DNA of 64,000 nucleotides from Vicinamibacterales bacterium. GTDB taxonomy: Bacteria > Acidobacteriota > Vicinamibacteria > Vicinamibacterales > SCN-69-37. The number at the start of each line of letters is the position of its first letter. Position 1 is the stretch's first letter. Below the pieces are notes generated by a model, which saw only the letters and a list, made by a program, of their open reading frames with translations, was not told the origin of the DNA and searched no databases. Location of the stretch: positions 699 to 64,698 of the forward strand of contig JBKJJZ010000510.1 in the NCBI GenBank assembly GCA_046597705.1, given 5' to 3'. Shown here one piece after another: positions 3,998 to 60,893 of the stretch. The position numbers and the translations under genes were made by a program.

Positions 3998-4037
3998 CCT
4001 ATTGCCTCATTGCCCATTTGCCTCAATGCCCCATTTC
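3998..4037 (-). repeat. (AATGGGGC)n-type octamer array, forward relative to the minus strand, ~28 nt upstream of the gcdH start
   Basis: The plus strand reads cctattgcctcattgcccatttgcctcaatgccccatttcc, which is the reverse complement of the array seen at 8796, 11826, 48450 and 60859. Confidence 0.85.
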
Positions 4038-8783: not shown

Positions 8784-8795
8784 GACGGCTCAATA

Positions 8796-8853
8796 ATGAG
8801 GCAATTGGGCAATGGGGCAATGGGGCAATGGAATGGGGCAATGGGGCCAATGC
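8796..8853 (+). repeat. (AATGGGGC)n octamer array upstream of a PadR gene
   Basis: Sequence is aatgaggcaattgggcaatggggcaatggggcaatggaatggggcaatggggccaatg. Confidence 0.9.
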
Positions 8854-9248: not shown

Positions 9249-11815
9249 TGGGCACGCGCGATTCGCGTCGAGACGATGACCTCCAGCGCGAGATACGGCT
9301 GCATCTGGAACTCGAAGCCGAAGAACGAAAGGCCGAAGGCCTTTCCAAAGAAGACGCGCGCCGCGCCGCGGCCATAGCCTTCGGCAATGTCGGGAAGGTT
9401 CGTGAGGATGCACGCACGGTCTGGTTCCCGCTGTGGTTGCAACAGGCGGGGCAGGACCTGCGATACGCCCTGCGAGTGGCGCGCCGGACTCCGGCGTTCA
9501 CCCTCGGCGCGATCCTGATCCTTGCCATTGGGGTGAGTGCCAGCACCACCATCTTCGGCGCCCTCAAGGCCGTCGTCCTGGCGCCGATGCCGTTCGCACA
9601 GCCCGAACAACTGGTGCGCCTCGCACAGACGAATCAACAACGTGGGGTGAAGGCATTCAACGCATCACTGCCGCTCTACCGCGATTGGCAGGCAAGAAGC
9701 GGAAGCTTCAGCGCAGTCGCCGCCGAACGCGGCGGAGCCGTCACCGTGCAGGGGCTGGGTGATCCCAGGCATCTGGACGCCAGGTGGATCACGCACAACA
9801 TGTTTTCGCTGCTGGGGCTCACGCCCGTGCTCGGCCGCACGTTCCAGCAGGAAGACGACGTGCCTGGCGCCGGCCGGGTGGTGATGCTGTCGCATGGATT
9901 CTGGCGCAGCGCCTTTGGCGCAGATCCGGGCGTGCTGAATCGCGCCCTCACCATCGACGGCCGTGCCTGCACGATCATCGGTGTCGCTCCGCCCGATGCG
10001 CTGAACACGACCGATCATGTTTTGTTGCCCGTCGTGCCTGTCACAGAGGACCGCCGTGGATCCTCGGACCTGGACGTGTATGCCCGCCTGAAGCCCAATG
10101 TCACGATCGACCAGGCCTCCAGCGAGATGACCGCCATTGCGGCGCAACTGGGGCGCGAGCATCCGGAGAACCACGGTGGCTGGGGTGTCAGCGTGGTGCC
10201 GCTTGCAGAATCGGTGGTCGGGCCCGCAACGCCGCGACTGTTGTATCTGCTCCTCGTGGCCGTCGGTGTGCTCCTCCTGATTACCTGTGCGAATCTCTCG
10301 AGCCTGTTCCTGGTCCGAGCCTCGGCGCGTACTTCCGAAATTGCCATTCGTGCCGCAATCGGTGGAGGGCGTGGCCGCATTCTTCGCCAGTTGCTGACCG
10401 AGAGCCTTCTGCTTGCCGGCGCCGGCGGCGCATTGGGTGTGGTTCTGTCACTGAGCGGGATGCGGCTCTGGCGCAACCTCATGGCTGGCGATGTGCCGCG
10501 CGCAGGCGAAGTCACCGTGGACATCTGGGTGCTCGCGTTTGCATGCGCGGTGTCGGTGGCCGCGGGTGTGCTTGCCGGTCTTGCGCCCGCCCGGCAGATG
10601 GCCAGACTTGATGTGATTCAGGGCCTGCGCGACGGCTCTCGATCTGTGGCGGCAGGCACGAACCGGACACGCAACGCCATGGTGATTGGCCAGCTCGCGC
10701 TCTCCGTCATCCTGCTTGCCGCCGCCGGCGTGACCGTACAGACACTCGATCACCTGAGCCATGTTGATCCCGGCTTCACTGCTTCACTGGTCCTGACCGC
10801 GCGCATCGCGCCGCGAGATCGGCCAGAGAAGTTCTTCGCAGATTTGCTGGCACGTGTCCGCGCCATTCCCGACGTGGCGATGGCCGCCGCCGCCAGTCAC
10901 GCCCCGATGGCGCCAGGCAACCTCAGCCTCCATGTGTTCCCCGTGGGTGAAGCGCGAATTGCCGCCACCGAATCGGTCCAGGCAGACTGGCGCATCGTGA
11001 CCGACGGTTACTTCGGCGCGATGGAAACGCCGCTGCTTGCGGGCCGCGATTTTTCAGCGAGAGACGACGGCAATGCGCCGAAGGTGATCATCGTCAATCA
11101 GACTCTGGCACGGCTCGTGTGGGGCGAGCGCGAGCCAGTTGGCCGTCAGCTGGATCTGGGCGGCGGGGGCGGCACGCCCGCCACAGTTGTGGGCCTCGTG
11201 CGCGATATGCGCCACCACAATCCGGCAGTGGCGCCAGCGCCCACGTACTATGTGCCGGCGGCGGCAGGCGTCTGGGGCACGATGGCACTCGTGATTCGCA
11301 CGGACACCGACGCCGCCTCACTCATGCCGCGCATTCGCGCGCAGGTGGCCGCTCTCGATCCCGCGCTGCCGGTCTACGACATCAACACGATCGAGACACT
11401 GATGCGCCGGAAACTGGCGCCGCAGCGGCTGGTGGCAGGCGTCCTGACCGGATTTGGTGTGCTCGCGCTGCTGCTGGCGGTGCTGGGCATCTACGGCGTC
11501 ATGGCCTACGCCACGCGCCAGCGCGCGCGTGAGTCCGCGATCAGGCTCGCGCTTGGCGCCACGCGGAGGAACGTGATCTGGTCGCTGGTGCGTGAAGGCG
11601 GCTGGCTGGTTGCGGTGGGAGCAATTATCGGACTGGCCGGCGCGATTCCCGCGCTGCAACTGATCGATAGTCTGTTCACCGATGTGAGTCCCGGCGATCC
11701 ACTGACCCTGGCCGTTGCGGTCGGCGTGCTGGCGGTCGCCGCGCTGCTGGCCTGCTACGTGCCGGCGCACAGGACCGCGCGCATCAACCCGATTCAGACG
11801 CTGAGGGGTGACTAG
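9248..11815 (+). CDS. ADOP-family duplicated MacB/FtsX-type ABC permease
   Basis: N-terminal prefix helix DDDLQREIRLHLELEAEERKAEGLSKEDARRAA, followed by two MacB-periplasmic-domain + FtsX halves (~855 aa). ATG 9248 shares one base with the PadR stop (TGA 9246-9248). Confidence 0.85.
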   Translation: MGTRDSRRDDDLQREIRLHLELEAEERKAEGLSKEDARRAAAIAFGNVGKVREDARTVWFPLWLQQAGQDLRYALRVARRTPAFTLGAILILAIGVSASTTIFGALKAVVLAPMPFAQPEQLVRLAQTNQQRGVKAFNASLPLYRDWQARSGSFSAVAAERGGAVTVQGLGDPRHLDARWITHNMFSLLGLTPVLGRTFQQEDDVPGAGRVVMLSHGFWRSAFGADPGVLNRALTIDGRACTIIGVAPPDALNTTDHVLLPVVPVTEDRRGSSDLDVYARLKPNVTIDQASSEMTAIAAQLGREHPENHGGWGVSVVPLAESVVGPATPRLLYLLLVAVGVLLLITCANLSSLFLVRASARTSEIAIRAAIGGGRGRILRQLLTESLLLAGAGGALGVVLSLSGMRLWRNLMAGDVPRAGEVTVDIWVLAFACAVSVAAGVLAGLAPARQMARLDVIQGLRDGSRSVAAGTNRTRNAMVIGQLALSVILLAAAGVTVQTLDHLSHVDPGFTASLVLTARIAPRDRPEKFFADLLARVRAIPDVAMAAAASHAPMAPGNLSLHVFPVGEARIAATESVQADWRIVTDGYFGAMETPLLAGRDFSARDDGNAPKVIIVNQTLARLVWGEREPVGRQLDLGGGGGTPATVVGLVRDMRHHNPAVAPAPTYYVPAAAGVWGTMALVIRTDTDAASLMPRIRAQVAALDPALPVYDINTIETLMRRKLAPQRLVAGVLTGFGVLALLLAVLGIYGVMAYATRQRARESAIRLALGATRRNVIWSLVREGGWLVAVGAIIGLAGAIPALQLIDSLFTDVSPGDPLTLAVAVGVLAVAALLACYVPAHRTARINPIQTLRGD

Positions 11816-11825
11816 GCGCGCGTGG

Positions 11826-11977
11826 AAAATGGGGCAATGGGGCAATGAGGCAATGGGCCAATGGAATGGGGCAATGCAACGAATGAGGCAATTTCAATTG
11901 CGGCATTGTCACTGCCCCATTTGTTGCATTGCCCCATTCCATTGGCCCATTGCCTCATTGCCCAATTGCCTAATTCC
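11826..11977. repeat. Octamer arrays in inverted arrangement: perfect 40-bp inverted repeat (11841-11880 / 11923-11962) with a 42-nt spacer
   Basis: I reverse-complemented ggcaatgaggcaatgggccaatggaatggggcaatgcaac by hand. It is identical to gttgcattgccccattccattggcccattgcctcattgcc at 11923-11962. Confidence 0.95.
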
Positions 11978-31325: not shown

Positions 31326-31852
31326 CGGCGCGAACTTCCGCCCTCGTGTTCCAGCGTTGAGATTCGTTTTTCATGGTCCGCCAGAGTAGCGGCAAAGGCG
31401 CGGTCCGCGGCTTCTCCGGGAATCGCGTGGTCGTCGAGCCGCTTCAGGATCATCGCGAAACCGGCGCGCATTTCCTGCCGGAGGCTGTCATCTTCCCGGA
31501 TGCCGCGAATCCGGTCAATCACGTCTTCGTGAAGCACCCCCATATGTCGCCGCAAGTCCACCCCGCCGGTCTTCAAGTCCGCGACGTCGCCTTTGAGACT
31601 TGTGACATCGCCTTTGAGCCCTGCGACGTCGGCTTTGAGCCCTGTGACATCGCCTTTGAGACTTGTGACATCGCCTTTGAGCCCTGTGACGTCGGCTTTG
31701 AGCCCTGTGACATCGTCCCTGAGACTTGTGACATCGCCCCTGAGACTTGTGAGATCGCCCTGAAGGCCCGTCACATCGGCCGCCAAATGATCTAGTCGCA
31801 GATCGACCCGGTCGAATCGCCGGTCGATCTCGTCAAAGCGTTCCTCAGCCAT
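31322..31852 (-). CDS. Heptad-repeat (coiled-coil) protein with 10 tandem DVTxLKG units
   Basis: MAEERFDEIDRRFDRVDLRLDHL, then DVTGLQG DLTSLRG DVTSLRD DVTGLKA DVTGLKG DVTSLKG DVTGLKA DVAGLKG DVTSLKG DVADLKT, then a ~75-aa helical tail. ATG 31852 is preceded by GGAGGGG. Confidence 0.6.
   Translation of the reverse strand: MAEERFDEIDRRFDRVDLRLDHLAADVTGLQGDLTSLRGDVTSLRDDVTGLKADVTGLKGDVTSLKGDVTGLKADVAGLKGDVTSLKGDVADLKTGGVDLRRHMGVLHEDVIDRIRGIREDDSLRQEMRAGFAMILKRLDDHAIPGEAADRAFAATLADHEKRISTLEHEGGSSRR
31571..31780. repeat. 10 x 21-bp tandem repeat (with 63-bp higher-order unit) inside the heptad-repeat gene
   Basis: Units such as tttgagacttgtgacatcgcc and tttgagccctgtgacgtcggc are read directly. 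Units 2-4 nearly equal units 5-7. Confidence 0.9.
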
Positions 31853-39642: not shown

Positions 39643-40832
39643 CTAAGAAACAAACATGGCTCGCGGTGATCGTGCTGATCCCCGGGCTGCTGATTCTGTT
39701 CGTGATGGGTCTGTTTATCTGGATGTCCTCCACTCCGCCCCTGCACCCGAATCCTCAGGATGTGCCATCGTCAGCGCAGTCGGCCCCTGGCGTGGAATGG
39801 GCTGCCGCGGTAGAGCAGGGCAAGCAGATCGTCCGTGCGAGCCTCGTCGAGCAGAACCTGCCGGGACTTTCGGTGGCGGTGGGCGTTGGCGGCAGCATCG
39901 TCTGGGCCGAAGGCATTGGCTTTGCGGATCTCGAGAAGCGCGTGCCCGTGTCCCTGGATACGCGCTTCAGGATCGGCACCGCTTCCATGGCGCTCACCTC
40001 GGCCGCCGTCGGCTTGCTGCTGGAGAGGGACCGGCTGAAGCTCGACGACAAGATACAGACGTACGTGCCCGAGTTTCCGGAGAAGCAGTGGCCTGTGACG
40101 TTGCGCCAACTGATGGGGCATGTCGGCGGCGTCATGAGAGACAACGGGGATGAGGAACCTGTCACGGTGCGATGCGAGGGAACTCTCGATGCGCTCGGAC
40201 GTTTTTCAAAGGCGCCACTGCGGTTCGAGCCTGGCACTGAGTTCCGTGTTTCCACCTATGGCTGGATTCTGGTGAGCGGGGCCGTCGAGAAGGCCTCGGA
40301 CGACCCGTTCTTCACCTTCATGCGGAGGCAGGTGTTCGAGCCGCTGGGCATGGTCGACACGAAGGCGGACTCCGCAATGGAGCCAAGCACGGACGGGGCG
40401 GTTTTCTATTTCCCGCAGTTTGCAGGCGATCCTCGCTACGGCCCGCAGGAACCAGGCGACGTGGACTATTCCTGCTTCGCCGGAGCCGCCGCATTCCTTT
40501 CAACCCCATCGGACCTTGTGCGCTTCGGTATGGCAGTCAACAGCGGCAAGTTCCTGCAGCCCGCCACGGTCCAACTACTCCAGACGGGACAGCGATTGTC
40601 GTCGGGAGAAGAGACGGGTTACGGCCTCGGTTGGGACCTTGAAGTGGCCACGCTAATGGGTGAACAAACCACTCTGGTAGGTCACGACGGGGAAATGAGT
40701 GGCGGGATGGTGTCGTCGTTGATGACGTTTCCCAAGCAAGGCATCGTCGTCTCGGTACTGTCGAATACCGCGTACGCGGACACGTTTTCTCTTGGCGTGA
40801 AACTGGCGCAGACCTTCGCGCAGAAGCGATAG
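39639..40832 (+). CDS. Beta-lactamase-fold serine-hydrolase family protein, membrane-anchored, catalytic motifs apparently substituted
   Basis: N-terminal TM segment. Fold signatures LPGLSVAVGVGGSIVWAEGIGFADLE, LRQLMGH and GLGWDL. TASM sits where SxxK is expected and VST where YxN is expected. TTGA overlap with the upstream gene. Confidence 0.65.
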   Translation: MTKKQTWLAVIVLIPGLLILFVMGLFIWMSSTPPLHPNPQDVPSSAQSAPGVEWAAAVEQGKQIVRASLVEQNLPGLSVAVGVGGSIVWAEGIGFADLEKRVPVSLDTRFRIGTASMALTSAAVGLLLERDRLKLDDKIQTYVPEFPEKQWPVTLRQLMGHVGGVMRDNGDEEPVTVRCEGTLDALGRFSKAPLRFEPGTEFRVSTYGWILVSGAVEKASDDPFFTFMRRQVFEPLGMVDTKADSAMEPSTDGAVFYFPQFAGDPRYGPQEPGDVDYSCFAGAAAFLSTPSDLVRFGMAVNSGKFLQPATVQLLQTGQRLSSGEETGYGLGWDLEVATLMGEQTTLVGHDGEMSGGMVSSLMTFPKQGIVVSVLSNTAYADTFSLGVKLAQTFAQKR

Positions 40833-40837
40833 GGAGG

Positions 40838-40897
40838 TACGTAGGGCATCCCTTTAGGGGCGCCGAATTGGCGCGGCTGAAGCCACGCCCTACGTAC
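40838..40897. repeat. Head-to-head pair of REP-like elements, one type-1 and one type-2 stem
   Basis: Sequence is gtacgtagggcatccctttaggggcgccgaattggcgcggctgaagccacgccctacgtac. The ends GTACGTAGGGC/GCCCTACGTAC are mutually complementary. Confidence 0.9.
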
Positions 40898-40919
40898 TAT
40901 ACGGAAGTCAAAAGCGCTC

Positions 40920-43900
40920 TTAGCCCAGGTTGATGTAGGGGCTCTTGCCGTCGAGCACGGCGGCGCCTGGATGAGACCACGCGCCGATGTAGCAGAAGGC
41001 GGCCCAGTCGCGCGGTTGCGGGTAAGCGGCACGAACCGCAAGCTGCGCCCGGCGGAACGCTTCGAGGCGGGTTGCGCCCTGGGCGAGTTCACCATACAGC
41101 CTAGGGAAAAACGTCGCGGCTGCATCGTCCGATAATTCCCAGAGGGAGGCGACGATGGAGGAGACGCCTGCGGCCAGGAGAGCCGCGGGGAGTCCACTGA
41201 GGTTGTCGCCGGCGTCGAACCTTCCCAGGGCCGAGTCGCAACTCCCGAGTGAAAGCAGTTCGAGGCCGCGCAGATCGTGCCCGAAGATTTCGTACGCGCA
41301 GATGCGGCCGTCCGACTCCGCGTCGGGCGTCACGAACAGATGCTGAAACAGTGGCGAGCTTGCGTTGTTGGCACCATGCGCGCAGAGGTGAACCCACCGG
41401 TTCGATGTCAGGGCGATAAATATGCGCGCTTCCGTCACCTCGGCGTCCAGCAGCGGGTCCGTCTTGGTTGCCGCGGCAATTGCCTGCACCTCATGATGCG
41501 CGCCGGGTAGCTCGACGAGCGGAAATGGCTCTCCGTCTTTGTAGCTCAGGCCCAGGGCCTGCACCGCTCCCTCCCGAGTCTCAGGTGCCGGCTGCATAAG
41601 GCACTCCAGACTTGGAATTGTCGTCACGGTCCAGTGCTGGGCAAGGTCCTCGTCGCCAGGACCCAGAATGTGGAGCGGATAGTACCGAAGCGCGCCATAG
41701 GGGCGAATGCACAGGTGAGTCTTTCCAGCCTTTCGCAGCGTCTCCAGGTGCGTCCACGTGGGCATGCCGAGCAGGATGTTGAAATCGCTGGCCAGCGCCT
41801 CCCTGGCGTCAGCGTGCAGGAGTTGCACTGCGGGATCGAGAGGATCGAGGGGCAGCGAGTGGCGGAGGCGATACGTCTGCATGCCTATGTCATCAACCAC
41901 CGCCTGCGACCCTTCCTTGCCCACCAGGTATTCCTGATGGTCGCCAGGCACCAGGTTCTTGAAGCACAGAATCTCTTCGCGCGTGTACGCGAGGATATAC
42001 ACGGCGTATTGCTTCGCGTCGTGCGGGGCGTAGTAGTAGTCCAGCAGCACGGTGTCCGGACCCAGCAGCTGGCCGATGGCTTCGGGGTCGAGAATCGCGC
42101 TCGATCGAACGCCCTCGATCAGCAATTGAGTCAGGCGGCGATCGAGTGCGCGCTGCAGATTGGCCAGCCGGCTGGCCTCGGTGTCCCCGCTCTGCGGTTC
42201 GCCGGCGCTCGATGCGCTGACTAGCAGCACTTCGTCCATTGGTTCCAGGTCTTCGTCCAGCCCAACCGCATTCTGCAGTTGCACGATTGCGTTCGACATC
42301 TGGGCGGCAGCCTCGTCTTCACGCCAGTCGAATGCCGGGCCCTGTCGCAGCAGCGCGCTGAAGCGCGCGCCCTTGGCCAACTGAAGGAGCATCGCCACGG
42401 TGGCCGAGTTGATGGAGTCTCCCAGGTTTGCGAACGCATTCCGGTAGACGGCCTGAAGCGCCTCGTCGCCGGACGCACCGAGCTCGCGATCGATTTCGAA
42501 CGCGACGGGCGCAAGCGCGGCGAGGGCCGCGAACAACATGTCTTCGCCCGGCTTTCCGGCCATATCCGCAATGGCCGCGAGCAGGTCGAACACGGCCGAC
42601 GGCATGCCCAGCCGGAGCGTGGGTGCCAGCGCCTGGGCGTACGCCTGAACGGCGGCGCTTGCATCCCCAGCCTTCACCGCATTCTTCGCGATGCCGATGC
42701 AGAGATGCGCGTAAAGAAAAGAGAGCGGTTCCTGATACGCGGCGATGGAGGGAGACTTCTGGATGGCGGTCTTCAACAGGCGCAGTCCCGTTTCCTCGTC
42801 GTCAGTTGTTTCCGAGCGCATCGCCAGCCAGACCAGCGCGGCGCACGCGCGATCGATGGGCCAGTGCTCAGCGTCCGCCGTCTTCATGACGCGATCCACC
42901 GTCTCCTTGAAGGAACCCTCGATGGGTGAGTTCAGCGCGCCACCGTGTGCGAGGGGGATCAGCTGCATCATCGCGAGCAGTCGCTTTCGGCGAAGTGCTT
43001 CCGTTGCAGAGTCACGGAAAAGGGCCGCGGCGTCCACAAGAACGCTGAGGGCGCGTGCGGGGTCGGTGGCTTTCAAGGCCGCCTGCAGCTGAAGCGCTGC
43101 CTCCGGCGAATCGGGGTTGAAGTCGGCCGCGGGAGCCGGAGCGCCCTCCAACCCCAGTCTGGCCATCAGAGCGACAAGCGCGCGGTGTTGATATTCACCC
43201 GCCGGCAGAAGTGGCAGAGCCTCCGCGCAAAGCTTCGTCATGCGTGCGCGATCCGGTTCTTCGTTCCGGGCGCGTGCGAGGAATTCCAGCGTCTGCACCA
43301 TCGCCTTGAGCGTGATCCCCTGTTGTTCCCCGGCTCGATCCGGAAGGGCACGCTCGTAGTAGTCGATCGCGGTCTGCAAGGCGTCCTTCGCGCTGGGGAG
43401 CGGGTACGTGTCCAGATGTTGCCGCGCAAGCGCCGGGCCCTTCACCGCCTCGAGTTTGCGCAATTGCTGTCGCTGATTGATTTCGTCAACTCCCCAGCCG
43501 CTGGGTCCGGAGACAGGGTCCGAGTACAAAACACCCAGCGCGTGGAGCAGTGCACCGCGGCGGGGATCCGATTCGCTGGAGACCAGCCGCTCCAGTACGT
43601 TCCTGCCCAGCGCCTCCGCGGCCTGCAGCATTTCGCCATCCGGGAACGAGCCGAGACCTGCGCCCGCGATCTGGATGAATCCCGTTGCCGCGATCTCCAG
43701 CCTTTCGTTCATGGATTTCCCGGGACAGGTGGCCAGACACGCTTCGGACAACAGCCGCGTCCAGAGCATCGCCGTGGCAGCGTCCTTGCCTGTCACCAGT
43801 TGTTCGGCATGCCACGTCAGGGCGTGCACATAGATCGGCGCGAGCTGCACCAGGAACTCAGGACGCCGTACATGCTCCAGCGCCGCTTTGAGCGAGGTCT

Positions 43901-44177
43901 CGCCGTCGATCACGCGCGTGGCCTGGACCTCCACGGGTCCCAGGCCGGCTGGATATCGCGACGCGGCCTGCGCGATGGCCCGGCGAATGGCATCGAGCTC
44001 GGCAAACCGCTCCATTCGGCTCCGGGCCTCGGGGCCTTGATCGCTTTCAAACTCGCTAACGAGCGCTCGGAGGGTGTCGATCGAGATGAGCGCCGGATTC
44101 TGGCAGGCGAACCTGAACCGGTCCGGCGGATCCGCGATCTCCCGATACCTGGCGAACAGCGATTCGAAGGTGGTCAT
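40920..44177 (-). CDS. TPR-like helical repeat protein with C-terminal CHAT (caspase-fold) protease domain
   Basis: 1085 aa. ~750 aa are all-helical and repeat-like. The CHAT domain has candidate catalytic His in WVHLCAHG and Cys in LLSLGSCDSALG, followed by AGVSSIVASLWELSD. The ATG at 44177 shares a base with the upstream TAA. Confidence 0.8.
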   Translation of the reverse strand: MTTFESLFARYREIADPPDRFRFACQNPALISIDTLRALVSEFESDQGPEARSRMERFAELDAIRRAIAQAASRYPAGLGPVEVQATRVIDGETSLKAALEHVRRPEFLVQLAPIYVHALTWHAEQLVTGKDAATAMLWTRLLSEACLATCPGKSMNERLEIAATGFIQIAGAGLGSFPDGEMLQAAEALGRNVLERLVSSESDPRRGALLHALGVLYSDPVSGPSGWGVDEINQRQQLRKLEAVKGPALARQHLDTYPLPSAKDALQTAIDYYERALPDRAGEQQGITLKAMVQTLEFLARARNEEPDRARMTKLCAEALPLLPAGEYQHRALVALMARLGLEGAPAPAADFNPDSPEAALQLQAALKATDPARALSVLVDAAALFRDSATEALRRKRLLAMMQLIPLAHGGALNSPIEGSFKETVDRVMKTADAEHWPIDRACAALVWLAMRSETTDDEETGLRLLKTAIQKSPSIAAYQEPLSFLYAHLCIGIAKNAVKAGDASAAVQAYAQALAPTLRLGMPSAVFDLLAAIADMAGKPGEDMLFAALAALAPVAFEIDRELGASGDEALQAVYRNAFANLGDSINSATVAMLLQLAKGARFSALLRQGPAFDWREDEAAAQMSNAIVQLQNAVGLDEDLEPMDEVLLVSASSAGEPQSGDTEASRLANLQRALDRRLTQLLIEGVRSSAILDPEAIGQLLGPDTVLLDYYYAPHDAKQYAVYILAYTREEILCFKNLVPGDHQEYLVGKEGSQAVVDDIGMQTYRLRHSLPLDPLDPAVQLLHADAREALASDFNILLGMPTWTHLETLRKAGKTHLCIRPYGALRYYPLHILGPGDEDLAQHWTVTTIPSLECLMQPAPETREGAVQALGLSYKDGEPFPLVELPGAHHEVQAIAAATKTDPLLDAEVTEARIFIALTSNRWVHLCAHGANNASSPLFQHLFVTPDAESDGRICAYEIFGHDLRGLELLSLGSCDSALGRFDAGDNLSGLPAALLAAGVSSIVASLWELSDDAAATFFPRLYGELAQGATRLEAFRRAQLAVRAAYPQPRDWAAFCYIGAWSHPGAAVLDGKSPYINLG

Positions 44178-45058
44178 TAAAGCAGTGCGTCGTAGATGGT
44201 CTTCGCCACAACGGCATCGTCGAGATAGCCGCCAATTCCATGGCGGTTCTCGGTGTGATTCTGCACGTCCACCTTGTTCGTGATGGCCGGCGTGACTGAG
44301 AAGTGCGGCTTTTCCAGAGGGTAGAGCGCTACCACGTCACGGTCGTCAAAGGCGTTGAACCACCTGCGTGCGCACTCGGGATAGGTCGTGGGCGAAATGG
44401 ATTGCCGAATCTTCGTCACCCCCAGGGGCGAACCCAGCGTGACGAACAGCGGAATGTCCCACTGTCGTGCCACGCCCTCACGGCGCAGGATGTTGTAAGC
44501 AACCACGGTGCCGAGCGAATGCGAGACCACTACCGTCGGCTCATTCGGATGCACGGCCTGCAGCACGCCCGTTTCGATCGCGTCGCGAATTCCAATTTTC
44601 GTCAGGTATTCGAAAACATCCCTGGTGAAGAGGGCCACCGAGCTGCCGCTGCCGAAGGGAATTTTTCGATCGATGACTTTGAGTATGCCTTGGACCCAGC
44701 CCCAGTTCAGCGGACCCCGCTCCACGACCTCGGCCGGAATCTCTCCGTCAATCTCGGCCTCGGTGATGCCTGCTTTCTTGCGCACCTCTTCCAGCACGTC
44801 CTGAAGGAACGCACGTTCTGCCTGGCTTTGTGGTCCGCGGATGATCACCTTGGCCGCGTCCGCCAGCGAAGCGCCGGCGACGAGCTGATCGAGCGTGTCG
44901 CCGTAGTACGGAAACCGAATGTCCTGCTCGGGGATAGGGAGCTGGAGATTGTTCTTCGCGAGTCCTTGCCGAAACGCGGCAATCCATTCGCCTTTGAGCG
45001 CCAGCGAATCCTTCTTCTGTTGGGCGCGCCCGTGGATGAAGACCAGTTTCTTTGTCAT
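44177..45058 (-). CDS. Small alpha/beta hydrolase, lipase/esterase-like
   Basis: MTKKLVFIHGR, then nucleophile elbow VVVSHSLGTVVAY (GxSxG-type), then FDDRDVV and NRHGIGGY as candidate Asp/His. ATG 45058 overlaps the upstream TGA (ATGA). Confidence 0.7.
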   Translation of the reverse strand: MTKKLVFIHGRAQQKKDSLALKGEWIAAFRQGLAKNNLQLPIPEQDIRFPYYGDTLDQLVAGASLADAAKVIIRGPQSQAERAFLQDVLEEVRKKAGITEAEIDGEIPAEVVERGPLNWGWVQGILKVIDRKIPFGSGSSVALFTRDVFEYLTKIGIRDAIETGVLQAVHPNEPTVVVSHSLGTVVAYNILRREGVARQWDIPLFVTLGSPLGVTKIRQSISPTTYPECARRWFNAFDDRDVVALYPLEKPHFSVTPAITNKVDVQNHTENRHGIGGYLDDAVVAKTIYDALL

Positions 45059-46728
45059 GGCGATCCTTTCAACTCTGCGCGCAGGCGTTCGACGCCCGAC
45101 GCGGTGAACACGGTCCAAAGCGAACGGCTGGAAACGTGCGTCCGCAGCCCCCGCAGCAACGGCGTCTCGGCATCGAAGGCGCCAAGCAGCGACCAGCCCT
45201 GCGCGAGCAGCGGCACGAAGGGAACCGATTGTGAATGGCTGCCGGACTCACGGTCGGCCAGCATCGCAATGTCGAAGAAAGAAACGCCAAGTGTTGCGAG
45301 GAGTACGTCTTCCATTTCCCTGATTTGGTCCAGGTTGCCGAGCCGATGGTAGGAATACGCCGCGTACACGGCCAGGGTCGGATCAAGGGACTTGAGCTTC
45401 CGGATACGTTCGGTCAGCTTCGGCGCGTCGCCTCGCTCCAGCCTCAACTCGCCGCGATGTACCGAAGAAACCACCAGCCGGCGCAGCGTCTCGAGATACC
45501 CCCGCTGGGCCAGAAAGTCCTGTCGGCGCGATGCGTCCGTCGGCTCGTATGAGACCTTCACCAGCGCTCCGCCCTCGAACACGAGCGTGCCGACGAAGTC
45601 ACGGATGGCGGGCAACACCACCGCGCGTCCGTCGGCAAGTTCGATCAACACGGACGCGGCCTGGTGTTGAAGGTGAACCTGGGCAAGCCCCGCCGCCAGC
45701 AACTCGACGTTGCCGTTGGCGCCGGCCGAGGCCGCAACGATGTTCGCTCCCCGCACCCTGAATCCGCAGGGCATTTCGACCAGTTCGCTCTCGAACGGGA
45801 CCAGTCCGATGAAGCTTGCGCCCGGGACCGCGGTGTTCAGTACCTTTTGCGCGGCAGTCAGTTTCGATTCACCCACCCGCTTTCCACTGCGAACGGTCCG
45901 GGCCGGTGATATCGCAGGTGCGGCGGCCGGCCTGAACCTGGGGTCGGTTGCGTCGAACGCCTGCAGGAACGCGAATTCGTCCGACAGGATTTCGGCGTCA
46001 GGTGTTTGCGTATGCTCCGAAGCCGCCCCGAGCTTGGCTGCCACAAGCTTCGGCACCTCACTCATCAGGTGACGCTTGAGCGGCTGCGGCCGCAAGAACA
46101 CTTTGGACTTATCAGCACCGGGGCTGAGGATTGTGAGCCGCTCTCCCTGAAGCGCCGCCATCAGCTCGGACGTGAACAGCGAATCGTAGCGGAGCGACGA
46201 CGCCGACTTGTCCTGGATCTCCAGCGCCGGTTCGCCAAGGACGGAGGCAAAGAAGACATCGACGGCCTTCTGCGGTCCTCCCCGCGGTTGATTCGGGAAG
46301 ATGTAACTGCCGTTGATGGCCTGGAGTTGAATGCCATCAGGCGCCGTCCGGCACGCGTCGGAGATGAACACCACGTGCGGAATTCCAGAGCGCTTCGCCA
46401 GCTGCACGGAACCCGCCACATTGACCGCCTCGTTGGGATCCTCCGGCGCATCGCTCAGGAACCAGTACTCGCTGAAATGCAGATTCACGCCATGGCCGGC
46501 GAAATAGACGAACAATTGCTCCACGCTGTCAGTTGTCACCAAAGCCTTGATTGCATCTCTGATTGCCTTGGCCGAAACCGGTTCATTCTCGTCCGTAATG
46601 GTGACGACCGTCTCGAACTTCTCCTGGCGGGCCCAGGCCTCGAATCTGCGGGCGCCGTCCAGCGCCGCCTTCAGCTCGGGAAGCGTTCCAGCTTTCTTGA
46701 CCGCGACGACGACGGCTGCGCGATTCAC
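45055..46728 (-). CDS. Caspase-like (peptidase C14 fold) protein with ~300-aa unassigned C-terminal region
   Basis: His context is QLFVYFAGHG and Cys context is HVVFISDACRTAPDG, within the first ~200 aa. I recognise nothing in the remaining part. GTG start at 46728. Confidence 0.7.
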   Translation of the reverse strand: MNRAAVVVAVKKAGTLPELKAALDGARRFEAWARQEKFETVVTITDENEPVSAKAIRDAIKALVTTDSVEQLFVYFAGHGVNLHFSEYWFLSDAPEDPNEAVNVAGSVQLAKRSGIPHVVFISDACRTAPDGIQLQAINGSYIFPNQPRGGPQKAVDVFFASVLGEPALEIQDKSASSLRYDSLFTSELMAALQGERLTILSPGADKSKVFLRPQPLKRHLMSEVPKLVAAKLGAASEHTQTPDAEILSDEFAFLQAFDATDPRFRPAAAPAISPARTVRSGKRVGESKLTAAQKVLNTAVPGASFIGLVPFESELVEMPCGFRVRGANIVAASAGANGNVELLAAGLAQVHLQHQAASVLIELADGRAVVLPAIRDFVGTLVFEGGALVKVSYEPTDASRRQDFLAQRGYLETLRRLVVSSVHRGELRLERGDAPKLTERIRKLKSLDPTLAVYAAYSYHRLGNLDQIREMEDVLLATLGVSFFDIAMLADRESGSHSQSVPFVPLLAQGWSLLGAFDAETPLLRGLRTHVSSRSLWTVFTASGVERLRAELKGSP

Positions 46729-46769
46729 GGGATGGATTCTAGATTAAACCGGTCGTGTTAGTCTCTCGC

Positions 46770-47171
46770 ATGACCAACGTTCAACTTGCGAAAGACATCT
46801 ACGCAGCATTCGGTAAGGGCGACATTCCCACTGTGCTGGCGGCGTTCCACCCTGAGATCGAGTGGCGACAAGCCGAAGGCCATCCGATTCAGTTCGATGG
46901 GGCCGCCTGGATAGGGCCACAGGCCGTGCTCGATAACCTTTTCATGTCGATTGGTGCGGACTGGGACGGTTTCACCATCACGGTACGGAGGCTTCACGAC
47001 GCGGGTGAATCCGTCGTCATGGAAGGCCGCTACAACGGTACTTACAAACCCTCTGGCAAGAGCCTGAATTCGCAGGTGTGCCACGTGCTGAAGTTTCAGG
47101 ACGGCAAGCTCCGGAGTTTCCAGCAGTATCTCGATACGGGACAGCTGCAGAAGGTCATGGCCACCGCCTGA
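46770..47171 (+). CDS. SnoaL-like / NTF2-fold protein
   Basis: MTNVQLAKDIYAAFGKGDIPTVLAAFHPEIEW...VMEGRYNGTYKPSGKS...HVLKFQDGKL. Confidence 0.7.
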   Translation: MTNVQLAKDIYAAFGKGDIPTVLAAFHPEIEWRQAEGHPIQFDGAAWIGPQAVLDNLFMSIGADWDGFTITVRRLHDAGESVVMEGRYNGTYKPSGKSLNSQVCHVLKFQDGKLRSFQQYLDTGQLQKVMATA

Positions 47172-47203
47172 CGTCGTAACCCCGGGCCACTACGGCGTCG
47201 TTG

Positions 47204-48058
47204 ATGGTGTTTAGAAACGCTCTACTGCTGGCCCTCGCCGCACTCGCCCTGCTCTTCATCGTCAAATGGAGGCGGGCGGCTGCGGGGACCCGTCGGCCTT
47301 CGCTGGTGCAGATCGCGATTGGCTTCGTCACGGACTTCTTCGATACGCTCGGCATCGGCTCGTTTGCGACGACCACAACTGCGTACAAGGTGCTGAAGGT
47401 GGTCCCCGACGAGAAGATTGTCGGCACCATGCTCATCGGCCACTCGTTGCCGGTTGTCACGCAGGCGTTCATTTTCATCGTTGCGGTGCAGGTGGATCCG
47501 GTGGTGCTCGTCTCACTGGTTGCCGTGTCCGTTCTGGGCAGCTGGCTGGGGGCCGGTGTGGCATCCAGACTTCCCAGGCGGCCGATACAGATCTTCATCG
47601 GCATCGGCCTGTTCGCCGCGGCGTTCTTCATGCTGCTGAGTCAGCTCGGCCTGTTTCCGAGCGGGGGAACCGCCCTCACACTCACGCCGGGAAAACTGGT
47701 CATTGCCCTGGTCGTGAATTTCATCCTTGGCGGCTTGCTGATGCTTGGCATCGGCAGCTACGCGCCGTCGCTGATTCTCATCAGCGTACTCGGCATGGAT
47801 CCGCGCGCCGCATTCCCCATCATGATGAGCTCTGGCGCGATGATGGCTATGGTTGGCAGCTTCCAATTCATGAAAGCCGGCCGCTTTGACAAGAATGCCG
47901 CGCTGGGCTTGGCGATTGGCGGCATTCCAGGGGTGCTTGTAGCAGGACTGCTGGTGCAGTCGCTACCGTTGAACGTGCTCCGTTGGACGGTTGTGCTGGT
48001 CGTCGTCTATGCGGCCACGATGATGCTGCGGTCCGCGTTGACCGCACGTCGAGTCTAA
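47204..48058 (+). CDS. TauE/SafE (DUF81) family anion exporter
   Basis: Polytopic membrane protein with GFVTDFFDTLGIGSFATT and GIGSYAPSLILISVLG. ~284 aa. Confidence 0.7.
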   Translation: MVFRNALLLALAALALLFIVKWRRAAAGTRRPSLVQIAIGFVTDFFDTLGIGSFATTTTAYKVLKVVPDEKIVGTMLIGHSLPVVTQAFIFIVAVQVDPVVLVSLVAVSVLGSWLGAGVASRLPRRPIQIFIGIGLFAAAFFMLLSQLGLFPSGGTALTLTPGKLVIALVVNFILGGLLMLGIGSYAPSLILISVLGMDPRAAFPIMMSSGAMMAMVGSFQFMKAGRFDKNAALGLAIGGIPGVLVAGLLVQSLPLNVLRWTVVLVVVYAATMMLRSALTARRV

Positions 48059-51358: not shown

Positions 51359-52636
51359 ATGCTCCCGGGCATGACGCGAACCAAAGTCACCTTCACAGCG
51401 ATGGCGCTCACGGCCGTGCTGTTCTTCCTGGCCCCGAGGCCCGACGCGGCTCAGCCGCAGGCGCAGGTCACGGCGATTCGAGCGGGCCGCCTTGTCGATC
51501 CAGATGCGGGTACGGCGGCGACCGATCAGGTGATTCTGATCACCGGTGGAAGGATCACCGCCATGGGTCGCGACGTGGCCATCCCGGCTGGTGCAAGTGT
51601 CATCGACTTGTCGAAGGCCAGCGTGATGCCGGGTCTGGTTGATGCGCACACGCACCTGTGCATGCAAGTGGTCGCGGAGCGCGACCACGGCAGCTACTAC
51701 TACACGACGCTCAACGATCCCGATGCTTTTCGGGCCGTTGAAGGCACGGCCAATGCCAGGGCCATGCTCGAAGCCGGATTCACGTCGGTCCGCGACGTGG
51801 GCAACGAGGGCAACTTCGCCTGTGTGCAGGTCCGAAAGGGGATCATGCAGGGGTTGATTCCCGGCCCGACGATGATCACGGCCGGCCGGATTATCGCGCC
51901 GTATGGGGGGCAGTTCCACCTGCAGCCGGACAAACCGGCGCTGGCGGAGCCCGAATACTTTTTCGCCGATACCCGCGATGAAATGATCAAGGCCGTCCGG
52001 CAGAATGCGCACTACGGCGCCACGGTGATCAAGATCGTCGTGGACGATCAGCGCTACATCTACTCGGTTGAGGACATCCGGTTCATCAAAGCGGAGGCCG
52101 CTCGAGCCGGGCTCAAGCTTGCGGCACACGCGTGGACTCGCGAAGGCGCGCAGAATGCGGCCGAGGCCGGTGTGGACTCAATTGAACACGGCATCGACAT
52201 GACCGACGAGATCCTGGCGCTGGCCAAGAAGAATAACGTGACGCTTGTGGGCACGGAGTTCCTGGTGGCCACCGATTTATTTGACGGGGCGTTCCACAAG
52301 CAGGTGGTGGATCGCCTGAAGCGCGCGTTCAAGATTGGCGTGACGCTTGTCTACGGCACTGACGCGATCGAGGCTGTAGCGGGCAAGACCCGAGGCGAAG
52401 TGGCCATCAGCGGCGTCGACGCGTGGGTGGAAGCCGGCGTTCCCGCGCCTGCAATTCTCAAGGCCATGACCACTCAAGCGCATCGCCTGCTGGGCCTCGA
52501 CGGGCAACGCGGTGCGATCAAGGTGGGCCAGGCCGCCGACCTCATCGCGACCATGGGAGACCCGCTCGCAAACATCGCGGCGCTGAAACAGGTCCTGTTC
52601 GTCATGAAAGACGGACAGGTCGTCCGGCAGCGGTAA
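51359..52636 (+). CDS. Secreted amidohydrolase family protein (imidazolonepropionase/prolidase-like)
   Basis: Signal peptide. Motifs MPGLVDAHTHL, AAHAW, IEHG, GTDA. Confidence 0.75.
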   Translation: MLPGMTRTKVTFTAMALTAVLFFLAPRPDAAQPQAQVTAIRAGRLVDPDAGTAATDQVILITGGRITAMGRDVAIPAGASVIDLSKASVMPGLVDAHTHLCMQVVAERDHGSYYYTTLNDPDAFRAVEGTANARAMLEAGFTSVRDVGNEGNFACVQVRKGIMQGLIPGPTMITAGRIIAPYGGQFHLQPDKPALAEPEYFFADTRDEMIKAVRQNAHYGATVIKIVVDDQRYIYSVEDIRFIKAEAARAGLKLAAHAWTREGAQNAAEAGVDSIEHGIDMTDEILALAKKNNVTLVGTEFLVATDLFDGAFHKQVVDRLKRAFKIGVTLVYGTDAIEAVAGKTRGEVAISGVDAWVEAGVPAPAILKAMTTQAHRLLGLDGQRGAIKVGQAADLIATMGDPLANIAALKQVLFVMKDGQVVRQR

Positions 52637-52641
52637 TTGGG

Positions 52642-52706
52642 GACGTAGGGCGTCCCTGCAGGGGCGCCAAATTGCGGACGTAGGGCGTCCCTTCAGGGGC
52701 GCCAAA

Positions 52707-52708
<2 letters not shown>
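52642..52708 (+). repeat. Two tandem forward REP-like hairpin elements
   Basis: Copies are gacgtagggcgtccctgcaggggcgccaaattg and gacgtagggcgtcccttcaggggcgccaaatc. They lie between convergent genes and abut the MFS stop codon. Confidence 0.9.
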
Positions 52709-60017: not shown

Positions 60018-60739
60018 TTGGCCTTGTTGAGTGCGTCCACGACGGCCCAGTAGAGGGCGTTCGCGCTTTGCGTGGCGCCGCTGACGTAGTCCACGTCGGG
60101 ACCCTGGCGCGTCACCACCTGCGCGGGGAGATGGTTAATCCACGAACAGGAGTAGTTCGTCCAGCACTGCGCGATGGCCACGTTCACGATGCGGCCGTTC
60201 TCGATCTTGACGGACGCCTGGATTTCTCCATGGCGCGAGGTGCCCCAGCCCAGGTATGTGCCGTCGGCGTAGACCTCCTTCGGCATGCGCAAAGCAGGCG
60301 CGGGGGTCTCTTCAGGTTTTGTCACGGGCGCAGAGGCCGGCGTTGAAGTCACCACGACAGCCGGTGAGGGCACGGGCGTCGGCGGTACGTAGGGCGTCCC
60401 TTCAGGGGCGCCGGGTACGTAGGGCGTCCCTTTAGGGGCGCCGGGTACATAGGGCGTCCCTTCAGGGGCGCCACCAGAGACTCCGGTTTCACGTACAGCA
60501 ACCGCCGCAGGAGGCTCGACAGGTACCGGCGACGTCAATTCCCCTGCTGTAGCACGTGCCGGCATCGCCGGAGGTCGATCGTTGGTGGCGTCCTCGATGC
60601 GTTGCGCGGCCGCGCGCGTCTTCATGAACCCCGCGGCGTAGACCACCAGGATGGCCGCGGAACTCAGCGTGACGAGGCTGTTGGCGATCTTCTTGTTCGC
60701 AGCGGCACCGGGGGCCATGTGATGGCCGGCATTATACAA
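60014..60739 (-). CDS. Membrane-anchored FMN-binding-domain protein (ApbE flavinylation substrate)
   Basis: N-terminal TM anchor, Pro-rich linker, and FMN_bind-like domain YADGTYLGWGTSRHGEIQASVKIENGRIV...DVDYVSGATQSANAL (the SGAT flavinylation motif). Confidence 0.75.
   Translation of the reverse strand: MYNAGHHMAPGAAANKKIANSLVTLSSAAILVVYAAGFMKTRAAAQRIEDATNDRPPAMPARATAGELTSPVPVEPPAAVAVRETGVSGGAPEGTPYVPGAPKGTPYVPGAPEGTPYVPPTPVPSPAVVVTSTPASAPVTKPEETPAPALRMPKEVYADGTYLGWGTSRHGEIQASVKIENGRIVNVAIAQCWTNYSCSWINHLPAQVVTRQGPDVDYVSGATQSANALYWAVVDALNKAK
60385..60472 (+). repeat. Three tandem 30-bp REP-like units lying in-frame inside the FMN-binding-protein gene
   Basis: gtacgtagggcgtcccttcaggggcgccgg occurs three times (period 30 bp). 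On the coding (minus) strand it translates as GAPEGTPYVP GAPKGTPYVP GAPEGTPYVP. Confidence 0.9.
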
Positions 60740-60858: not shown

Positions 60859-60893
60859 AAATTGGGCAATGGGGCAATGGGGCAATGAGGCGA
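60859..60893 (+). repeat. (AATGGGGC)n octamer array ~40 nt upstream of the peptidase gene
   Basis: Sequence is aaattgggcaatggggcaatggggcaatgaggcga. Confidence 0.85.

Follow-up and report, generated by a model that had tools for sequence, protein, structure and literature searches.

A caspase-like protease and α/β-hydrolase pair with a translationally coupled CHAT protease gene in a Vicinamibacterales bacterium: plausibly a three-gene variant of a known module

The Three-Gene Locus

In this study, we analysed a three-gene locus of a Vicinamibacterales bacterium that lies in a stretch of 64,000 nucleotides (nt) of contig JBKJJZ010000510.1 (positions 699 to 64,698), referred to below as the window. 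The genes encode a caspase-like cysteine protease (gene 1), a putative α/β-hydrolase zymogen (gene 2), and a long protein ending in a CHAT protease domain (gene 3). By their sequences, genes 1 and 2 belong to the caspase-like protease / α/β-hydrolase zymogen module that Evans et al. described in 2025, and gene 3 is a recurrent yet facultative partner of this pair.

An initial annotation of the window had described three minus-strand genes joined by ATGA and TAATG overlaps, and both the coordinates and the letters of the junctions are as it gave them (Table 1). The catalytic residues it had proposed are likewise all present and are conserved in the homologue alignments of genes 1, 2, and 3. The GTG start of gene 1 agrees with the N-termini of its aligned homologues. 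For gene 2, the list of open reading frames (ORFs) gives a version of 313 amino acids (aa) with a TTG start 20 codons upstream; we adopted the 293-aa version because the ATG at 45058 agrees with the N-termini of all aligned homologues.

Table 1. Coordinates of the genes, domains, catalytic residues, and predicted cleavage sites of the locus, numbered by position in the window.
Feature	Position	Strand	Description	Basis
Gene 1	45055..46728	-	557 aa, GTG start, caspase-like (C14-type) cysteine protease	ORF and Pfam
Gene 1 caspase domain, aa 1-250	45979..46728	-	pLDDT mostly >90	AF2 model
Gene 1 catalytic H79 (VYFAGHG)	46492-46494	-	invariant	codon verified
Gene 1 D124	46357-46359	-	two residues ahead of C126	
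Gene 1 catalytic C126 (FISDACR)	46351-46353	-	invariant	codon verified
Gene 1 linker, ~aa 251-315	45784..45978	-	variable, largely disordered	pLDDT and alignment
Gene 1 C-terminal module	45058..45783	-	conserved; eight-strand beta-rich region and helical domain	DSSP on model, pLDDT
ATGA stop/start overlap, gene 1/gene 2	45055..45058	-		read from sequence
Gene 2	44177..45058	-	293 aa, ATG start, putative α/β-hydrolase zymogen	ORF and family alignment
Gene 2 predicted cleavage site 1, R74↓G75	44834..44839	-	corresponds to LcHydrolase Arg73	
Gene 2 predicted cleavage site 2, R114↓G115	44714..44719	-	corresponds to LcHydrolase Arg117	
Gene 2 catalytic triad region	44240..44518	-	S181, D238/D241, H273	
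Gene 2 S181 (SHSLG)	44516-44518	-		codon verified
Gene 2 D238	44345-44347	-		codon verified
Gene 2 D241	44336-44338	-		codon verified
Gene 2 H273	44240-44242	-		codon verified
TAATG stop/start overlap, gene 2/gene 3	44175..44179	-		read from sequence
Gene 3	40920..44177	-	1085 aa, long predicted helical N-terminal region and C-terminal CHAT protease	ORF and Pfam
Gene 3 N-terminal region, aa 1-800	41778..44177	-	uncharacterised; helical by prediction; possible sensor or scaffold	
Gene 3 CHAT protease domain, aa 814-1065	40983..41738	-	E 2.9e-42	Pfam CHAT
Gene 3 H934 (LCAHG)	41376-41378	-	invariant among orthologues	codon verified
Gene 3 C980 (LGSCDS)	41238-41240	-	invariant among orthologues	codon verified

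Genes 1 and 2 and the Published Protease-Hydrolase Module

The LcCaspase-LcHydrolase module of Lysobacter capsici AZ78 has been characterised biochemically, according to a preprint that is not peer-reviewed (Evans et al., bioRxiv 2025.11.14.688446, 14 November 2025). LcCaspase, with Cys129 as its catalytic residue, is described there as cutting LcHydrolase after Arg73 and Arg117, both in R↓G motifs that are conserved in 161 homologues. Three fragments of 8.1, 4.7, and 19.8 kDa result, of which the N- and C-terminal ones together are toxic and kill the cell; the substrate of the hydrolase is reported not to be nucleic acid (bioRxiv 2025.11.14.688446).

Gene 2 contains exactly two RG dipeptides, at residues 74/75 and 114/115, and cleavage at both would yield fragments of 8.25, 4.41, and 19.85 kDa, in agreement with the published sizes. 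Among 81 sequences of the gene 2 family, site 1 has R or K in 73 and G in 72, and site 2 has R or K in 74 and G in 77. Both sites fall into the least confident segments of the structural model of gene 2, residues 113-115 scoring below 50 in the predicted local distance difference test (pLDDT), as is expected of exposed loops.

The set of related loci described below includes Lysobacter sp. Root690, Luteimonas, and Lysobacterales, with clear homology to genes 1 and 2 and with a residue numbering that fits Evans et al. The orthologues of Lysobacter sp. Root690, taken as a stand-in for the AZ78 proteins, are 36% identical to gene 1 over residues 1-554 and 53% identical to gene 2. Counted from the start MNRAVLL, the cysteine of the Root690 caspase is residue 129, and the Root690 hydrolase carries K73 and R117. 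We accordingly name gene 1 a putative orthologue of LcCaspase and gene 2 a putative orthologue of LcHydrolase.

The initial annotation had proposed a protease-gated death or immunity module, and for genes 1 and 2 this logic is correct. It had also stated that it knew of no named system with such a composition. For the core of the locus this was mistaken: the pairing appears in Kaur et al. 2020 (eLife e52696), who report an α/β-hydrolase gene alongside every caspase-superfamily peptidase of their conflict systems, and Evans et al. 2025 describe this very family as a zymogen that is activated by double cleavage at R↓G sites.

Three gene 2 homologues stand without a protease neighbour (L067 and L078, with the hydrolase at about 10001-10900, and L075, with the hydrolase at 617-1519). 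All three have lost both (R/K)-G motifs and retain Ser-Asp-His, and such copies may have become constitutively active or taken on another function.

Architecture of the Caspase-Like Protease

Pfam places Peptidase_C14 at residues 3-196 of gene 1 (E 5.5e-7, over the gathering score). H79 and C126 are invariant in an alignment of 24 homologues, and the histidine aligns with the motif around the catalytic His in metacaspase-4 of Arabidopsis. Members of the family are homologous over their full length, with about 40% identity across phyla.

Some 300 residues behind the protease domain had been left unassigned by the initial annotation. Their structure is now accounted for by an AlphaFold2 (AF2) model (pLDDT 81.8, predicted template modelling score 0.84); their function is not. 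The linker is rich in Pro and Ala, varies in length among homologues, and drops below a pLDDT of 50 at residues 276-290, 292-294, and 300-314. It is followed by a beta-rich region (residues ~320-396, pLDDT 84-97) with eight strands by DSSP, which we read as a β-sandwich, and by a helical domain (residues ~399-555). Behind the linker, the motifs C321-G-F, LPA, and YEP are kept family-wide in the alignment. Searches of Pfam, NCBIfam, and PDB sequences gave no match for the C-terminal half, and a role in sensing or oligomerisation is our guess.

A Foldseek search with the model of gene 1 returned MALT1, metacaspases, and caspases at E 1e-8 to 1e-4, and the best PDB matches were MALT1 caspase-Ig3 chains over about 440 aligned columns. 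The D124-x-C126-R context of gene 1 resembles the active site of MALT1, and we take it to form a basic-P1 pocket. Such a pocket would fit the cleavage after Arg that was shown for LcCaspase, the orthologue.

The Hydrolase

S181, D241, and H273 are invariant in all 81 sequences of the gene 2 family, and D238 is found in 80 of them. The nucleophile elbow reads [S/G/A]-H-S-L-G and is not a strict GxSxG. With about 60% identity between phyla and 2693 scored matches, the family is unusually conserved. Pfam gave only sub-threshold PGAP1, Abhydrolase_6, and LCAT elbow matches, and the search of PDB sequences gave chance-level matches in addition to nucleophile-elbow matches to lipases. In the AF2 model (pLDDT 84.9), gene 2 is a compact α/β-hydrolase, and both predicted cleavage sites lie in an inserted helical segment of ~110 residues. 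The fold matches of the model are weak (template modelling score ~0.4) and comprise the DDHD domain of Nir2, Bacillus subtilis lipase A (LipA), Legionella RavL, and cutinases. The lipase-like assignment of the initial annotation was not confirmed by these elbow and fold matches. A lipase- or esterase-like enzyme with an ester or lipid substrate is our best guess from the model, and Evans et al. likewise reached this call via HHpred (bioRxiv 2025.11.14.688446).

Conservation and Mobility of the Pair

A hydrolase profile scan with one genome per species led to 508 confirmed loci. The best 80 of these, two of which are cut at a contig end, were analysed, and the counts of loci below refer to them; their genes were placed by tblastn coordinates and by ORFs filtered for GC content at third codon positions. 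A homologue of gene 1 lies directly upstream of the hydrolase and co-oriented with it in 69 of the 80 loci. The two genes overlap by 4 nt in 34 of these 69 homologous pairs and are at most 30 nt apart in 55. The pair occurs in Acidobacteriota, Pseudomonadota, Actinomycetota, Bacteroidota, Planctomycetota, Gemmatimonadota, Nitrospirota, and others. When the flanking ORFs were clustered, no other gene was common to more than about five loci.

The hydrolase family is present on 55 plasmid records. The pair was found on a 62-kb Hymenobacter plasmid, on the conjugative Agrobacterium plasmid pTiAF1_95 (L089), where it lies near genes for a ParB-like protein, an ArdC-like zincin, and a helicase of 1700 aa, and in an integrase/transposase/RES-Xre island of Opitutaceae TAV5 (L082). 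The pair is thus a self-contained, horizontally mobile two-gene module, and the last two contexts hint at a role in conflicts with plasmids or integrative and conjugative elements, beyond phage defence alone. A DUF932 gene is a further accessory gene beside the pair in these contexts.

Carriage by phages was considered and rejected. The sole matches in phage collections are distant lone hydrolases on one record (L090, CAKLQH020000003.1, 'Acinetobacter phage MD-2021a'). This record contains ftsI, ftsL, mraW, gltX, tRNAs, and czc efflux genes and looks like a bacterial chromosome.

A full-length gene 1-type caspase and a gene 2-type hydrolase are joined into a single chain in P0235, an 878-aa metagenome protein of the European Nucleotide Archive (ENA), and in an ORF of 907 aa at L024:8162-10885. 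Both may be genuine Rosetta-stone fusions or may result from frameshift errors; genuine fusions would be useful for structural studies of the complex in its inhibited state. Two further arrangements involve proteins with a metallo-beta-lactamase (MBL) fold. In a metagenome-assembled genome of an uncultured betaproteobacterium (L003:7201-10879), a Peptidase_S8 subtilase, an MBL-fold protein, and a gene 2-type hydrolase with both R-G sites kept are joined by 4-nt overlaps; this trio possibly combines a single protease with two effectors of the zymogen type. On an ENA metagenome contig (L162:213-5932, hydrolase 75% identical to gene 2), a 596-aa protein without a Pfam match and a 408-aa MBL-like protein precede the caspase-hydrolase pair, which looks like two protease-effector modules back to back.

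Gene 3 and Its Linkage to the Pair

Residues 1-800 of gene 3 match no Pfam family over threshold and contain no TPR repeats according to Pfam. The TPR-like repeats seen in this region by the initial annotation were not confirmed in this way; 'helical, TPR-like' stays a plausible description. A HMMER search with the same residues yielded 312 representative clusters, of which 228 reached E <= 1e-10. The members are almost always ~1000-1130 aa long, and all eight that were sampled end in a CHAT domain without another Pfam domain. Orthologues were found at 66%, 50%, 51%, 31%, 29%, and 25% identity, full-length ones being few in a word-indexed search. Based on these similarities, gene 3 is assigned to a coherent, unnamed family of at least 312 sequence clusters that combines a predicted helical N-terminus of ~800 aa with a CHAT domain. 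A gene 1-like N-terminus on P0361, a long member of this family, was checked and found not to exist.

A CHAT protein is encoded at most 10 kb from the hydrolase in ~13 of the 80 loci (raw count). The initial annotation had treated the trio as a unit, which holds for the pair in 69 of the 80 loci and not for the CHAT gene. The same trio occurs in different surroundings at 81% hydrolase identity (L081). In another locus the order is gene 3, gene 1, gene 2, with a 6-nt gap and a 4-nt overlap (L092), and a divergently transcribed gene 3-like gene adjoins the pair in Thiodiazotropha (L009), Amycolatopsis (L015), Knoellia (L048), and L093. The position of the hydrolase between two proteases, pointed out in the initial annotation, is therefore true here and lineage-specific.

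Other CHAT proteins stand beside the pair as well, namely TPR_12-CHAT proteins in L025 and L029 and others in L001, L070, and L076. Hydrolases with a linked CHAT gene are interspersed with those that have none. The hydrolase of Massilia (L026, L030) and Saprospiraceae (L060, L062) has a CHAT protease as its only partner, in place of the C14 protease; the protease of the two Saprospiraceae loci is EAD11-CHAT. Of these four loci, L026, L030, and L062 retain both R-G sites, and L060 reads R-S at site 1. Directly upstream of the pair in one further locus (L004:4614-7043), a CHAT domain is fused to an FGE-sulfatase-type domain.

The gene 3 family also reaches a second type of module. In L085, L086, and L095, a gene of this family lies beside a non-homologous α/β-hydrolase of the DUF7379/LCAT type, itself fused or adjacent to a TCAD7-CHAT protease. 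Homology of gene 2 to these hydrolases was considered and rejected, as hhalign relates the elbow only. Since no relation is visible past the elbow, the DUF7379/LCAT-type modules are analogous to the pair and not homologous.

Gene 3 is thus a recurrent yet facultative partner of the pair, with a permuted gene order and a phylogenetically scattered distribution. We found no published description of gene 3 as a partner in the literature compared. What is new at this locus is plausibly this third gene, a real, recurrent, and optional partner.

Genomic Surroundings and Other Features of the Window

Four genes on each side of the trio were examined. They encode a GT2 protein, a Kdo-kinase-like protein, an MpaB protein, and a beta-lactamase-family protein on one side, and SnoaL, TauE, DUF2809, and FKBP-sortilin proteins on the other; the upstream neighbour of gene 1 is the SnoaL-like gene, which is divergently transcribed. 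These flanking genes are ordinary, and the remark of the initial annotation that the neighbours look unrelated was borne out.

A search of the 64-kb window found no CRISPR array, and no cas genes are among the neighbours. A scan of positions 40500-47300 for promoters and terminators gave no match, which is uninformative given the GC-rich organism. An NCBIfam scan of the three proteins gave no family over the cut-off. PADLOC returned one weak 'caspase' match (E 1.8e-5) and no gasdermin for them.

Several repeats occur elsewhere in the window. Short arrays of the octamer AATGGGGC lie at 8795-8852, 11828-11876, and 60860-60891, and of its complement at 4002-4036 and 11940-11975. At 31562-31792, a 21-nt unit (GACATCGCCTTTGAGACCTGT-like) is repeated eight times in tandem and would phase with a 7-residue repeat if coding. 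A related GC-rich unit of 30-35 nt (…ACGTAGGGCGTCCCT[G/T]CAGGGGCGCC…) is present in 2.1 tandem copies at 52635-52707 and in 3.0 at 60384-60472, about 8 kb apart.

Proposed Mechanism and Alternative Explanations

We regard it as probable that genes 1 and 2 form a Lysobacter-type death module, to which gene 3 is a facultative add-on that would, in our preferred reading, provide an extra sensing input. The products of genes 1 and 2 would be made by coupled translation and would probably assemble with each other. Once activated, the caspase-like protease (H79/C126), with its specificity for Arg, would cut the latent hydrolase at R74↓G75 and R114↓G115 and so remove a 40-residue piece of ~4.4 kDa. 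The N- and C-terminal pieces would then come together again as an active Ser181-Asp-His273 hydrolase, which would poison the cell. For gene 2, the double cleavage and the toxicity of the fragments are expected by homology with the orthologue, on which the preprint reports both. That genes 1 and 2 represent a latent death effector with its licensing protease is well supported, with homology, motif conservation, gene linkage, and fusions all observed. The trigger would be read by the C-terminal module of gene 1 or by a partner protein, and the likely outcome would be abortive infection or the exclusion of mobile elements.

In our preferred reading of gene 3, its helical region would detect a trigger, after which the CHAT domain would license the module proteolytically. 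The gene 3 protease might cut the gene 1 protein, e.g., in the disordered linker, which would make a cascade; the precedent of SAVED-CHAT acting on PCaspase suggests this option. It might also cut the hydrolase directly and thus be a second activator in an OR gate, an option put forward because CHAT proteases elsewhere are the sole partners of the hydrolase family.

A wider proposal would make the gene 3 family an unnamed, portable sensor-protease that plugs into modules of a caspase-fold protease and an α/β-hydrolase zymogen from at least two unrelated hydrolase families. A two-tier cascade (CHAT to caspase-like protease to hydrolase) or a two-input gate would be created, independent of CRISPR and NTPases. 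We consider this proposal possible and tentative, with the balance somewhat against it.

Several observations weigh against a death module with gene 3 as an added sensing input. Around 87% of the pairs have no CHAT neighbour, and the pair lacks gene 3 even in close relatives at 77%, 75%, 67%, and 64% hydrolase identity; as most pairs are without CHAT, the module does not generally depend on gene 3. Many members of the gene 3 family stand alone (L096-L100, L110, L116), some of them beside a transposase or relaxase. Judged by its neighbouring genes, the locus lies outside any defence island and shows no visibly mobile context, and PADLOC, with a 2023 database older than the Evans preprint, calls no system for the three proteins. 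The homology to the AZ78 proteins was measured on the Root690 stand-ins. According to the preprint, LcCaspase cleaved its substrate constitutively in vitro, and anti-phage activity of the module is not shown there (bioRxiv 2025.11.14.688446).

Some of these observations would also fit a gene 3 that is an independent, stand-alone sensor-protease merely clustered with the pair, two systems lying side by side without biochemical cross-talk. The solitary family members found in several metagenome loci, the majority of pairs without CHAT, and the scatter of CHAT-linked hydrolases among non-linked ones all point that way, and stand-alone caspase-like proteases are able to defend by themselves, as stated in the discussion of Evans et al. 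(bioRxiv 2025.11.14.688446). However, such independence is at odds with the TAATG overlap at our locus, the 6-nt gap in L092 under another gene order, and an association that spans at least three phyla and three arrangements. The family is moreover found beside a second, non-homologous module of hydrolase and caspase-fold protease, and the hydrolase family can have a CHAT protease as its sole partner. We therefore judge independence of gene 3 to be unlikely. Activation might instead run in the reverse direction, with the gene 1 protease activating the CHAT protein as a second effector, whose broad proteolysis would act alongside the hydrolase. Activation of one protease by another has been reported for SAVED-CHAT and PCaspase in type III-B CRISPR, and layouts with two effectors exist around the hydrolase (subtilase, MBL-fold protein, and hydrolase in L003; tandem modules in L162). 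An 800-aa non-catalytic N-terminus, however, is more like a sensor or scaffold than like an inhibitory prodomain, and other CHAT partners bear TPR_12 or FGE-sulfatase-type domains, which are typical recognition modules; a reverse cascade appears quite improbable to us.

Finally, the trio might have a housekeeping function outside conflicts, namely the regulated processing of a lipid- or peptide-modifying enzyme in development or stress, the toxicity in Escherichia coli being a heterologous artefact. The locus is surrounded by ordinary genes of metabolism and the envelope and has neither mobile nor defence genes in its vicinity, which is compatible with this, and no phage-defence phenotype has been reported for the module; Kaur et al. 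2020 (eLife e52696) tie such systems to multicellular habits. A housekeeping role is nevertheless hard to reconcile with the patchy distribution, the ever-changing neighbourhoods, and the presence of the pair on plasmids and integrative islands. Furthermore, a zymogen with a precise double cleavage and toxic fragments matches the known architecture of abortive-infection effectors, and we hold a housekeeping role to be highly unlikely. Our preferred reading is thus a licensed death effector with gene 3 as an optional sensing input.

The discovery that the initial annotation hoped for has largely been made already, and the pair described here, probably from a soil metagenome-assembled genome, adds a distant member to a known module, which is a modest contribution. 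The attachment of one CHAT family to two modules is a testable lead: with one family of large CHAT proteins repeatedly joining two non-homologous modules in varied orders, protease-to-protease wiring becomes testable outside CRISPR. Moreover, the R-G-type sites, kept in some lineages where a CHAT protease is swapped in and lost without a protease, offer a simple sequence marker of copies that are still protease-gated.

Comparison with Known Systems

Bacterial gasdermin-protease systems differ from the locus, as PADLOC found no gasdermin in the three proteins and the neighbours are unrelated. The two-gene EACC1-caspase system of Kaur et al. 2020 is also different: NF047832 scores 25 bits against a cut-off of 140, and the place of the 5' EACC1 transmembrane gene is held by the divergent SnoaL-like gene. 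The ternary VMAP/MoxR-vWA systems of the same authors, like the locus, combine a caspase-superfamily peptidase with an α/β-hydrolase, sometimes with a second caspase-like domain. However, none of MoxR, vWA, and VMAP is found among the four genes on each side, none recurs in the 80 related loci, and the proteins here are stand-alone.

Like Csx29 of the type III-E Craspase, gene 3 has its CHAT protease behind a repeat-type or helical N-terminus, and its His and Cys motifs align with cHGE and GACET of the solved Csx29 TPR-CHAT chains (E ~1e-4). In contrast, gene 3 scores 10 bits with the NCBIfam model NF041237, whose cut-off is 300, no homology is detectable between the N-terminal regions, neither gRAMP/Cas7-11 nor Csx30 is among the neighbours, and the window has no CRISPR array. 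A CHAT protease encoded together with a caspase-like protease is also found in type III-B CRISPR, where SAVED-CHAT reportedly activates the caspase-like PCaspase by cleavage (Steens et al. 2024). Residues 1-800 of gene 3, however, carry neither SAVED nor any other Pfam domain and form an unrelated helical region. The window holds no CRISPR array, cas genes, or cyclic-oligoadenylate signalling, and the locus has a dedicated hydrolase zymogen.

Among eukaryotic proteases, the paracaspase MALT1 is the best structural match of the gene 1 model, with a caspase domain and a subsequent beta-rich domain. The two also have in common the D-x-C-R active-site context and Arg-specific cleavage, the latter presumed for gene 1 from the R↓G sites of the orthologue. 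They differ in sequence (12-15% identity) and in relative domain orientation (root-mean-square deviation ~23 Å), and gene 1 lacks a death domain and N-terminal Ig domains but contains a long disordered linker and, in addition, a helical domain.

The closest counterpart is the LcCaspase-LcHydrolase module, which agrees with genes 1 and 2 in the two families, gene order, coupling, His/Cys and Ser/Asp/His residues, R↓G sites, and fragment sizes. As far as its text is available, the preprint names β-transducin repeats and a STAND NTPase as sensors fused to the protease and mentions no CHAT partner (bioRxiv 2025.11.14.688446). The locus, in contrast, adds a third, translationally coupled gene of the gene 3 CHAT family, which plausibly makes it a new three-gene variant of the known module.

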